In this document: positions 7,104-34,177 of the stretch, piece by piece
How positions within the stretch are numbered: position 1 is the stretch's first letter
How the letters are laid out: the number at the start of each line of letters is the position of its first letter
IMG/VR virus record: IMGVR_UViG_3300037963_003337
DNA: 64,000 nucleotides
Direction: 5' to 3' (one strand)
From: an uncultured virus (IMG/VR IMGVR_UViG_3300037963_003337)
Taxonomy: Duplodnaviria; Heunggongvirae; Uroviricota; Caudoviricetes
Notes under the pieces: generated by a model
The model's database searches: none
What the model saw: the letters and a program-made list of their open reading frames with translations, nothing else
Told to the model about the DNA's origin: nothing
Program-made: the position numbers and the translations under genes

Positions 7104-7138
7104 TTGACTAAATAGGACATGAGGGTCTATAATAGACC
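7104..7138 (+). promoter_or_regulatory. Sigma70-type promoter of the riboswitch transcript
   Basis: TTGACT (7104-7109), 18 nt, TATAAT (7128-7133); embedded CTAAATA (7108-7114); palindrome GGTCTAT-A-ATAGACC. Confidence 0.75.
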
Positions 7139-7141
7139 TGT

Positions 7142-7370
7142 CGTTCATCCCACTCTAGTGGTGGGACGCAAGTAAGTCGCGGAACGGAGCGTTCATCCCA
7201 ATGGTAGATCTACTACTATACACTACAATTAGTTGTGCTGATGCCGATGCTATCCTGCTGAGGATTGATGCACATAAAAATCTGCCTGATACTATCAAGG
7301 TAGAACTTGTAGAGACCGTAAAGGAATCAACACCTGATTGTTATTGGGACGCAAACGACTGAAGGAACGG
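7142..7370 (+). ncRNA. Tandem glutamine riboswitch-like aptamers (glnA / Downstream-peptide class)
   Basis: Two copies of CGTTCATCCCA...TGGGACGCAA...GGAACGG; AGTA/GAA E-loop halves; directly upstream of a DUF4278 peptide gene. Confidence 0.8.
7201..7362 (+). CDS. 53-aa ORF nested in the P2 loop of the second aptamer
   Basis: MVDLLLYTTISCADADAILLRIDAHKNLPDTIKVELVETVKESTPDCYWDAND*; GGAG at 7186-7189. Confidence 0.65.
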   Translation: MVDLLLYTTISCADADAILLRIDAHKNLPDTIKVELVETVKESTPDCYWDAND

Positions 7371-7405
7371 GGATTAAACCACCCTTACTTTCAGGAGTAC
7401 ATCAA

Positions 7406-7573
7406 ATGAACACACTTACTATCATTCAGAAGCAGATCAAGAAAGCTGCTGCTCTTCATGACGCTCAGATCTCTCACACTGCTTATCGTGGTGTCGAGTA
7501 TGATACACGTTGTGTAGAGTCCAAAGAGTCACACGGTACATTCTGCTATCGTGGTAAGACATACACAAAGTGA
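7406..7573 (+). CDS. DUF4278-family small protein (55 aa)
   Basis: AGGAG SD; MNTLTIIQKQIKKAAALHDAQISHTAYRGVEY...FCYRGKTYTK with two YRG motifs. Confidence 0.85.
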   Translation: MNTLTIIQKQIKKAAALHDAQISHTAYRGVEYDTRCVESKESHGTFCYRGKTYTK

Positions 7574-7577
7574 TTGG

Positions 7578-7606
7578 TTGACAAAACCTTTTATTTCGTG
7601 TATACT
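7578..7606 (+). promoter_or_regulatory. Sigma70-type promoter
   Basis: TTGACA, 17 nt, TATACT. Confidence 0.7.
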
Positions 7607-7632
7607 ATAACTTCCGTGTGAAGGAAGTGACC

Positions 7633-7660
7633 AGAGAGGGTTCAACCCCTCTCTTTTTTT
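7633..7660 (+). terminator. Intrinsic terminator
   Basis: AGAGAGGG-ttcaac-CCCTCTCT followed by a T run. Confidence 0.85.
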
Positions 7661-7671
7661 ATCTAATCATC

Positions 7672-7839
7672 ATGCCCTATTTTACTAACACCTCTGATGC
7701 TCCCTATAATCGTCATAGGTACAAACTAATTTTTAAAAATAAGAAGGCAGCAATCTTTGATGACTATGAAGTGCTGAGATCTGCTTGGTTTGAATGGGCA
7801 GGGACAAAGCAACTAGATAGGATAGAGGTACTTGACTAG
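7672..7839 (+). CDS. Hypothetical protein (55 aa)
   Basis: ATG just after the terminator; PYNRHRYKL motif. Confidence 0.65.
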   Translation: MPYFTNTSDAPYNRHRYKLIFKNKKAAIFDDYEVLRSAWFEWAGTKQLDRIEVLD

Positions 7840-9229: not shown

Positions 9230-9392
9230 CTGGAAATACTGTTATCGTATTGACCAGTGGTTAGTACCAGATCTGGTAGAAGGTTATCAGATTTGGACTG
9301 GCGACAAATATCCTTATCAAAATGAGAGGGATTACCTACGGAAGAGTGGTCGAGTGGTTGATGGCACTGGTCTTGAAAACCAGCAACGTTAA
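9159..9392 (+). CDS. Hypothetical protein whose 3' end overlaps tRNA-Ser
   Basis: MKTLLIHLIAFWNVVVMNCVQPVNWKYC... Confidence 0.55.
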   Translation: MKTLLIHLIAFWNVVVMNCVQPVNWKYCYRIDQWLVPDLVEGYQIWTGDKYPYQNERDYLRKSGRVVDGTGLENQQR

Positions 9393-9425
9393 TAGCGTTC
9401 GTGGGTTCAAATCCCACCTCTTCCG
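9340..9425 (+). tRNA. tRNA-Ser (anticodon TGA)
   Basis: GGAAGAG/CTCTTCC acceptor stem, CTGGT-CT TGA AA-ACCAG anticodon arm, long variable arm, GGTTCAAATCC T-loop; no encoded CCA. Confidence 0.96.
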
Positions 9426-32670: not shown

Positions 32671-32754
32671 GGGAGCGTGACGGAATCGGTAGACGTATCG
32701 GACTTAAAATCCGCTGATGGCAACATCGTGGGGGTTCAAGTCCCCCCGCTCCTA
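32671..32754 (+). tRNA. tRNA-Leu (anticodon TAA)
   Basis: GGGAGCG/CGCTCCT acceptor stem, CGGA-CT TAA AA-TCCG anticodon arm, variable arm, GGTTCAAGTCC. Confidence 0.95.
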
Positions 32755-33710: not shown

Positions 33711-33925
33711 GACCCTTATCTGAATATGAATTTGGTGGGAGACCTGTAACAGGCATACATCTTCTTCTACTCATAAGTGAGATGGAAGGTACTTACCAAC
33801 ATCTCAAATACATGGGGTTTGAAGAAGATATGAATGTGCTTGACAAAATGAAAAAAAGGTACTATAGTATGTACTTCAAAGTTTCTAAAGAAGAAAAGAA
33901 CCGCCAAACTAGCTCAGATGGATAG
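33707..33925 (+). CDS. Hypothetical protein overlapping the tRNA-Thr 5' end
   Basis: LISEMEG.YQHLKYMGF..DM; ATGA-coupled. Confidence 0.7.
   Translation: MRPLSEYEFGGRPVTGIHLLLLISEMEGTYQHLKYMGFEEDMNVLDKMKKRYYSMYFKVSKEEKNRQTSSDG
33840..33868 (+). promoter_or_regulatory. Intragenic sigma70-type promoter for the tRNA cluster
   Basis: TTGACA, 17 nt, TATAGT. Confidence 0.65.
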
Positions 33926-33976
33926 AGCAGGTCTTTTGTAAAGATCAGGTCGCAGGTTCAAGTCCTGTGTTTGGCT
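33903..33976 (+). tRNA. tRNA-Thr (anticodon TGT)
   Basis: GCCAAAC/GTTTGGC acceptor stem, TT TGT AA loop, GGTTCAAGTCC. Confidence 0.95.
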
Positions 33977-34104: not shown

Positions 34105-34177
34105 TCCTCTATAGCTCAGTTGGTAGAGCAGGTGACTGTTAATCACCCTGTCCCTGGTTCGAGTCCAGGTGGAGGAG
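34105..34177 (+). tRNA. tRNA-Asn (anticodon GTT)
   Basis: TCCTCTA/TGGAGGA acceptor stem, GGTGA-CT GTT AA-TCACC, GGTTCGAGTCC. Confidence 0.96.

Follow-up and report, generated by a model that had tools for sequence, protein, structure and literature searches.

We analyzed a 64,000-nucleotide (nt) stretch of DNA from an uncultured marine cyanophage of the class Caudoviricetes (IMG/VR record IMGVR_UViG_3300037963_003337), referred to below as the window. Positions 7140–7400 of the window appear to encode one composite glnA-type riboswitch, with a protein gene situated in its inner hairpin (the loop gene) and with reciprocal control by glutamine of this gene and of the DUF4278-like gene behind the sensor. 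We assign a probability of roughly 0.55 to this reading; the reciprocal control is the part of it that we infer from the predicted architecture of the RNA. The element consists of two successive aptamer-like repeats, units 1 and 2, each with CGTTCA, a hairpin, CGCAA, and GGAACG. An earlier note on this DNA had placed the gene in the stem-loop of an independent second aptamer, and this independence was not borne out: the P1 strands of the two units covary crosswise, which argues for a single glutamine riboswitch of composite, nested form. The present data do agree with the same note in its proposal that folding conflicts with translation. The start codon of the loop gene lies in a covarying stem, and its last codons and stop codon coincide with invariant nucleotides of the sensor, so that a translating ribosome must unfold the sensor.

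The predicted features are listed below with their positions in the window and their strand.

7104–7133 (+): promoter-like site, TTGACT, 18-nt spacer, and TATAAT; 11 of 12 positions match
7142–7146 (+): 5' strand of outer P1, CGTTC; partner 7365–7369
7148–7166 (+): P2 hairpin of the outer junction, directly after CGUUCA; 6 bp, loop 7154–7160
7167–7174 (+): junction strand CGCAAGTA with the AGTA half of the E-loop; invariant in the 143-row alignment and aligned to the RF01739 consensus
7175–7179 (+): 5' strand of P3, AGTCG; partner 7356–7360
7182–7194 (+): inner P1-like hairpin; GAACG 7182–7186, loop GAG, CGTTC 7190–7194
7196–7202 (+): 5' arm of P2', TCCCAAT; holds the A and T of the loop-gene start codon
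7201–7362 (+): loop gene, 53 amino acids; phrog_504, 'T4-GC 430', Syn9 gp197 family
7343–7349 (+): 3' arm of P2', ATTGGGA; encodes part of Tyr-Trp-Asp
7350–7355 (+): inner junction strand CGCAAA; nearly invariant, the sole change being A to C at one position
7356–7360 (+): 3' strand of P3, CGACT; its final T is the first base of the loop-gene stop codon
7359–7394 (+): alternative (OFF) helix, CTGAAGG 7359–7365 with CTTTCAG 7388–7394; present in the minimum free energy (MFE) fold
7361–7364 (+): GAAG with the GAA half of the E-loop; overlaps the loop-gene stop codon
7365–7369 (+): 3' strand of outer P1, GAACG; covariation
7393–7397 (+): Shine–Dalgarno (SD) sequence AGGAG of the downstream gene; overlapped by the OFF helix
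7406–7573 (+): DUF4278-like gene, 55 amino acids; phrog_545, 'T4-GC 937', Syn9 gp198 family
7633–7660 (+): terminator-like hairpin (7633–7654) and T run, intrinsic type; end of the unit

The AGTA and GAA strands would form the internal loop named E-loop in the literature.

Nested pairing of units 1 and 2

Relatives of the element were collected from phage records by blastn with positions 7130–7580 (451 bases) as the query and from IMG/VR by two motif scans, one with a 23-base string from unit 1 and the other for variants of the 3' strand of unit 1. The second scan was prompted by a double change in locus L139; each scan yielded at least 120 loci. Of the 238 distinct loci compared, 139 combined GGAACG as the 3' P1 strand of unit 1 with CGTTCA as the 5' P1 strand of unit 2, and 95 combined GCAACG with CGTTGA; none was mixed, and four were cut off. 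The outer strands, 5' of unit 1 and 3' of unit 2, were CGTTCA/GGAACG in 209 of these loci and CGTTTA/GAAACG in eight, again with none mixed; the remainder comprised one locus with GGAACA and others that were cut off.

In an alignment of 143 rows, column pair 11–339 (outer P1) was CG in 136 rows and UA in six, and column pair 75–89 (inner hairpin) was CG in 72 and GC in 71, these equal halves reflecting sampling since half of the rows were drawn from each scan; neither pair was unpaired in any row. The nested structure as a whole had 98.6% of its cells paired, compared with 30–52% in slid controls (partner shifted by 1–3 columns), and its covariation score was reached by none of 500 shuffles. 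Covariation shows the pairing to be nested, which places the gene in the predicted hairpin of the inner junction.

The arms of P2' recognized in the earlier note (7196–7202 and 7343–7349) are indeed complementary along 7 bp and enclose 140 nt; in the alignment, the stem was 99.7% paired. It goes beyond chance complementarity, as its first four pairs were kept with compensatory changes in 111 distinct long-loop relatives: pair 1 was T–A in 106, C–G in four, and G–C in one, and pair 4 was C–G in 87, T–A in 16, T–G in seven, and mismatched in one. Pair 5, containing the A of the ATG, was A–T in 92 of these relatives. The stem is 5 bp long in most relatives and 7 bp long in the window. Locus L055 has the arms GATT/AATC, a fully compensatory change, and its loop frame of 92 codons passes the core.

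Three of the four counted pairs of the outer-junction P2 vary on both sides. P3 (AGTCG/CGACT) was 99.9% paired, with GC in 138 rows and GU in five at one pair and with the other pairs invariant; the variants CGATT and CGGCT stay paired by wobble. AAGTA (7170–7174) and GAAGG (7361–7365), which flank P3, are both invariant and consensus-aligned in the relatives.

The Rfam cut-offs are 35 bits for Glutamine (RF01739) and 33 bits for Glutamine-II (RF01704). Natural short-loop relatives with the same core scored 38.4–43.6 bits with RF01739 in five of seven loci, and the matches spanned the whole composite: the 5' half of unit 1 was joined to the 3' half of unit 2 as a single aptamer instead of two, AGU and ACU of P3 were paired across both units, and the rest was treated as an insertion in P3.

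Several variants of the arrangement were observed. In the lineage of locus L140, AGCCGAC and GTTGACT replace the P3 strands; similar units, AAGUA-AGCCGA-CACGGAACGG and AAAU-GCCGACU-GAAGGAACGG, are present among marine metagenome sequences of the glnA alignment of Weinberg 2010 (PMC2864571), and split halves of the E-loop may be general for marine tandems. An insertion of 60–100 nt starting with AGCGTAAGCAATTAGAATG was found in the inner-hairpin loop between the units in L071, L108, and six further loci; it is perhaps a small mobile element or a remnant of one. In L154, L179, L189, and L202, the outer helix is followed by a repeat of ACTGAAGGAAAC, a hairpin, and another CGTTCATCCCAT, which suggests a third unit downstream in some phages.

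The loop gene

The uninterrupted 53-codon open reading frame (ORF) described in the earlier note was confirmed at 7201–7362, with the C-terminus YWDAND, the ATG (7201–7203) in the 5' arm of P2', and the stop codon TGA (7360–7362) overlapping GAA (7361–7363). Coding constraint, which the note had named as a check on the gene, was present: the frame is kept, and the median pairwise ratio of nonsynonymous to synonymous substitution rates (dN/dS) was 0.26 among 88 distinct main-family sequences (2547 of 3828 pairs usable), with values of 0.67 and 2.15 in the other two frames of the same bases. Entropy at the three codon positions of the gene interior was 1.05, 0.51, and 1.40 in the 88 sequences. 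The ATG-initiated frame reaches the T(G/A)A of the core in 109 of 115 long-loop loci. The remaining six still carry the frame: in one, a separate stop comes 22 nt ahead of the arm; in two, a TAG within the 3' arm ends it; one continues past the core; and the last two begin with TTG, one of them with a late frameshift as well. Lengths of the loop insert vary by multiples of three.

The loop protein matched phrog_504, a phage family of unknown function, with residues 1–53 on profile positions 1–53 (E 2.8e-27). With a profile built from 82 loop-protein sequences, 226 cluster representatives were matched at E ≤ 0.001; almost all are 50–60 residues long. The AlphaFold model is a two-helix hairpin (helices 12–24 and 30–43) with a mean predicted local distance difference test score (pLDDT) of 81; of the two invariant cysteines, C12 stands where helix 1 begins and C47 follows helix 2. 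A Pfam search of the protein found nothing below E 0.09, a Foldseek search of the model against the PDB gave no hit at E ≤ 0.001 (the top rows were generic helices), and in the ESM Atlas, only unnamed clusters of the protein's own family were matched. About 20 divergent family members have no WDAND tail; tblastn of two of them against phage isolates found only loop genes, 34–53% identical. A homologue of the divergent type, L133, is encoded in a viral contig with the sensor halves absent around the gene; the loop-gene family, therefore, also exists free-standing. Judged by these sequence comparisons, the 53-codon ORF is a genuine gene.

Third-position entropy in the last five codons (WDAND) was 0.00, and the nucleotides of these codons are conserved also in relatives without a loop gene, in which the junction strand CGCAAA was likewise found. 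By this pattern, selection on the end of the gene is selection on the RNA. The unconserved peptide that characterizes a regulatory leader was not what we found here: besides the low dN/dS, the protein has two cysteines, a two-helix model, and a free-standing homologue.

Metatranscriptome contigs (four RNA libraries, two studies) cover the core and the genes of relatives; such contigs can contain DNA and give no measure of expression. Contig starts at 7171–7173 were considered as transcript ends and rejected; they are likely assembly breaks at variable hairpins.

Proposed switch and alternative explanations

In the MFE fold, CTGAAGG of the OFF helix pairs with bases adjoining and within the AGGAG of the DUF4278-like gene, which begins 37 nt past the outer helix. 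The OFF helix and the sensor are mutually exclusive because the same strand is used by both. The middle base of the loop-gene stop codon covaries with its OFF-helix partner in 195 distinct loci: TAA stands opposite U in 56 of 56 cases, TGA stands opposite C in 73 and U in 56, and the A–C combination does not occur (Fisher's test, p = 5e-16, kinship ignored). In ten of these loci, mostly ATTCAGG forms, the OFF-helix motif was not matched by the pattern. A link between the loop gene and the DUF4278-like gene is thus structurally plausible. Another pairing of the MFE fold, GUUCAU–AUGAAC at the downstream start, was rejected as a general feature because many relatives start with ATGACT or ATGTCT.

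The downstream protein matched phrog_545 over its full length (E 6e-35) and PF14105 with 21.3 bits (E 3.5e-4), below the Pfam gathering score of 25.3 bits; its P-TIM40 counterpart carries the annotation 'DUF4278 domain-containing protein'. In Synechocystis, gifB, encoding the DUF4278 protein IF17, is controlled by a type 1 glutamine riboswitch, and glutamine binding is described as freeing a masked ribosome-binding site (Klaehn 2018, PMC6212724). The phage element is similar in being the 5' leader of a DUF4278-type gene and in having, 3'-adjacent to the aptamer, a sequence that can pair with the ribosome-binding site; the ligand-bound fold should, therefore, switch translation on.

In the mechanism that we propose, the outer helix (7142–7146/7365–7369) would close the element around the P2 hairpin, the AGUA/GAA internal loop, and P3, which would open into a second aptamer-like three-way junction with the P1-like hairpin (7182–7194) and P2' (7196–7202/7343–7349). 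The AUG of the loop gene would be paired in P2', and its last five codons and stop codon coincide with the invariant 3' half of the sensor. Glutamine would stabilize this fold, hiding the loop-gene start and leaving the downstream SD sequence free; the loop gene would then be silent and the IF17-like gene active. With little glutamine, the fold would open, the loop gene would be translated, and the downstream gene would be masked. A ribosome crossing the loop gene would unfold P2', P3, the internal loop, and the outer helix and, at termination, would also open the masking helix. Translation of the loop gene could in this way be a second input or a reset for the sensor. If this logic is true, the element would be a natural sensor with opposite control of the genes inside and behind it and with translation as the second input, which would bear on how cyanophages handle the nitrogen status of the host during infection.

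A broader version of the reciprocal switch is put forward only tentatively. It would add a logic gate for up to three phage genes, with the small cysteine proteins of the hairpin loops off in the glutamine-bound state, make the downstream IF17-like gene a candidate glutamine synthetase inhibitor, and let ribosome traffic through the loop genes report the translation status of the cell to the sensor; catalogued tandems would include a nested two-junction class, possibly with two ligand sites, that standard searches have missed.

Several points weigh against the reciprocal switch. The counts rest on the matches listed by exact-motif scans and do not equal natural frequencies. P3 is without any two-sided change in the 143 rows, its sequences being invariant across phage genera, and the divergent locus L140 has a C–A mismatch in it. 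On the loop-gene tree, the inner P1 state changes 20 times and the outer state two times, which recombination could explain; the two sites of the inner pair are inherited together because they lie merely 8–12 nt apart, and each covarying P1 pair may rest on one or few mutational events. In the window, positions 7140–7190 scored 25.7 bits with RF01739, below the cut-off, and the interrupted unit and the composite gave no Rfam match even at E-value thresholds; the low RF01739 score is attributable to the insertions, since short-loop relatives with the same core pass. The GGAG at 7186–7189, suggested by the earlier note as the SD sequence of the loop gene, was confirmed at that position, where the loop of the inner hairpin is located. 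It is not conserved, however: of 198 distinct loci, 143 have an SD-like tetramer ahead of the loop-gene ATG and 55 have none. Finally, transcription reaches the 3' half of the sensor about 150 nt past the AUG, so the first ribosome may load before the start is shut in.

Among the alternatives, the one that survives best, although we regard it as rather unlikely, is that the hairpin loops are permissive sites for small genes using the riboswitch promoter, with no selected regulatory link. All four occupancy combinations of the two hairpins do occur among 133 loci (first/second hairpin: short/gene in 85, gene/gene in 27 plus two variants, short/short in eight, gene/short in one, and cut off or unclear in ten), the L133 homologue is at least one free-standing member of the family, and several divergent peptide types occupy the same loop; the length of the P2 loop also varies widely in other glnA RNAs (alignment of Weinberg 2010, PMC2864571). 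Such neutral occupancy is at odds with the fixed place of the start codon in the stem (193 of 198 loci have it 4 nt past CGTTCA) and with a stop codon in the core or the 3' arm in 106 of 108. The same overlap is repeated in the first hairpin (unit 1), which hosts a gene of about 66 codons in 30 of the 133 loci, including Syn9 gp196: the ATG lies 4–5 nt after CGTTCA, the stop codon lies in the 3' arm, and the 5' arm changes compensatorily with the stop codon used (TCTCATG/CATGAGA, TCTTATG/CATAAGA). Moreover, a ribosome on the last codons of the loop gene would open the sensor and the masking helix regardless.

Coupling of the two genes is less probable still. In that case, the DUF4278-like gene would be activated mainly by ribosomes translating the loop gene, which on termination would melt the masking helix and free the SD sequence; both proteins would be made together, and the chief effect of glutamine would be to tune how ribosomes enter the loop gene. 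The masking helix and the sensor are, however, the same in gene-less relatives, which argues that the platform works without a loop gene, and the loop gene stops elsewhere in four of 108 loci (two in the 3' arm, one earlier, and one far downstream). These facts stand against a stop codon located inside the covarying masking helix (CUGAAGG) and 31 nt upstream of the downstream SD sequence and against RNA-library contigs of relatives (three records) that span both genes, all of which would suit such coupling.

Two independent aptamers side by side, forming a pseudo-cooperative doublet with the gene in P2 of the second, are very improbable. In both units, CGTTCA, the hairpin, CGCAA, and GGAACG follow the usual order. 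Taken by itself, unit 1 matches Rfam weakly, with the 25.7 bits mentioned above and with 24.8 bits for RF01704; for the latter model, unit 2 scores 34.0 and 32.1 bits in short-loop forms. Sherlock 2022 (PMC9481103) lists 157 glutamine doublets, along with four triplets, as pseudo-cooperative. However, pairing of each unit with itself would leave its own P1 mismatched in 95 of 234 loci, and column pairs 11–75 and 89–339 unpaired in 71 and 72 of the 143 rows, respectively, whereas crosswise pairing is intact. The energy of the defined helices is −24.8 kcal/mol for the nested structure versus −17.6 kcal/mol side by side, and the strands of the internal loop are split, with AGUA in unit 1 only and GAA in unit 2 only. 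Membership in Glutamine-II was rejected, the 24.8 bits of the window being below 33 and the unit's own P1 being broken in half of the aligned rows; a linear reading of unit 2 likewise conflicts with the covariation.

The least credible explanation is that the open frame is a long variable hairpin spacer: metatranscriptome contigs are no proof of translation, but the dN/dS, the phrog_504 match, the breadth of the family, the structural model, the free-standing homologue, and stops in both other frames in 88 of 88 main-family sequences all contradict it.

Occurrence and relation to known systems

The blastn search matched 421 phage records, all of cyanophages, 270 of which covered at least 80% of the query with 60–95% identity, and more than 240 viral metagenome loci had the same core. 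The matching phage records annotate the loop ORF and the one after it as two hypothetical proteins, with the notes T4-GC 430 and 937 in S-SM2 and S-MbCM7 and the names gp197 and gp198 in Syn9. Of the 126 motif sources listed, 115 had a long insert (157–259 nt to the 3' half), eight had a short hairpin, and three were cut off.

Peptides of the first and second hairpins are alike in having a hydrophobic start and two cysteines; hhalign gave a probability of only 33–37% with both cysteines aligned, which suggests paralogy. First-hairpin genes were found in L126 (Syn9, 295–508), L009, L014, L017, and other loci. Their start lies about 12 nt from the predicted 5' end of the RNA, and the leader would, therefore, be very short.

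The phage element shares CGUUCA, P2, CG-AAGUA, P3, and GAAGGAACG with the glnA RNA (RF01739) and differs from it in that P3 bears a whole second aptamer-like junction, protein genes occupy one or both hairpin loops, and the element is viral. Tandem glutamine riboswitches are described as separate units with digital or pseudo-cooperative action (Weinberg 2010, PMC2864571; Sherlock 2022, PMC9481103). Like these doublets, the phage element has two aptamer-like units a few nucleotides apart upstream of one gene; unlike them, its strands pair outer with outer and inner with inner into a nested fold. The glnA alignment of Weinberg 2010 (PMC2864571) holds unit-like marine metagenome sequences; the phage-type strings looked for were not found in this alignment, nor were the words 'nested' and 'phage' in the accessible text of Sherlock 2022 (PMC9481103). 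Glutamine-II (Downstream-peptide motif, RF01704) resembles the inner junction in its junction nucleotides and in being without an internal E-loop; it differs in that its P1 is a pseudoknot with the hairpin loop. Glutamine-II is associated with short DUF4278 genes in marine picocyanobacteria (Klaehn 2018, PMC6212724; Weinberg 2010, PMC2864571).

Only two glutamine aptamers in cyanophage genomes are reported by McCown 2017 (PMC5473149), and the cyanophage genome papers, as far as their accessible text goes, mention the riboswitch in passing only. Literature searches, with incomplete coverage of the tandem-riboswitch and Syn9 transcriptome literature, found no published description of a gene inside an aptamer or of nested pairing, in line with the earlier note, which had known of no such arrangement. 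On sequence criteria, the phage element is a variant of a known riboswitch class, in which the gene-in-hairpin arrangement and the nested pairing are new. Aptamers have been treated as non-coding and phages as nearly riboswitch-free; the phage core described here is widespread among the phage records and viral contigs covered, where the genes within its hairpins conceal it from standard model searches. Nested pairing also alters how tandem glutamine riboswitches should be modelled.

Two other kinds of systems are comparable. In the Salmonella mgtA leader, mgtL is a short ORF in a sensing leader, and its translation alters which helices form. The phage element is similar in that an ORF in a ligand-sensing leader changes the helices formed when translated. 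It differs in that the gene lies within the hairpin of the aptamer itself and that its product belongs to a conserved family of 53-residue proteins with free-standing relatives, whereas products of the mgtL type are not thought to matter. Group I and group II introns carry protein genes in peripheral loops (an endonuclease in group I). There, too, a structured RNA tolerates a gene in a hairpin loop, and folding and translation compete; in contrast, the phage host RNA is a metabolite sensor and not a ribozyme, the guest is neither a homing endonuclease nor a maturase, and its start and stop codons overlap the conserved core.

The start of the RNA was placed at about 7140, just 5' of the sensor, and TTGACA with at most one mismatch was found upstream in 135 of 162 distinct relatives. 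From the promoter-like site through the terminator-like hairpin, the region has the appearance of a single short transcription unit. An inverted repeat, GGTCTA..TAGACC (7123–7139), surrounds the −10 hexamer of the promoter-like site. A perfect repeat of at least 6 bp within the 26 nt before the first CGTTCA was present in 125 of the 162 relatives versus eight of 162 shuffled sequences; its arms vary between phages, and it may act as a hairpin in the RNA, at the DNA level, or as a site for a protein.

A second promoter-like site, TTGACA-17-TATACT, is located at 7578–7606, between the stop codon of the DUF4278-like gene and the terminator, and a weak match to the cyanobacterial small RNA family Yfr19 (23.7 bits versus a cut-off of 70) was found within 7578–7667. 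The next ORF (7618–7839) matched DUF7441 (PF24225, E 9.5e-19) and phrog_897. At gathering thresholds, the Rfam search of the whole window detected four tRNA genes alone (9340–9425, 32671–32754, 33903–33976, and 34105–34177), two of which have long variable arms.

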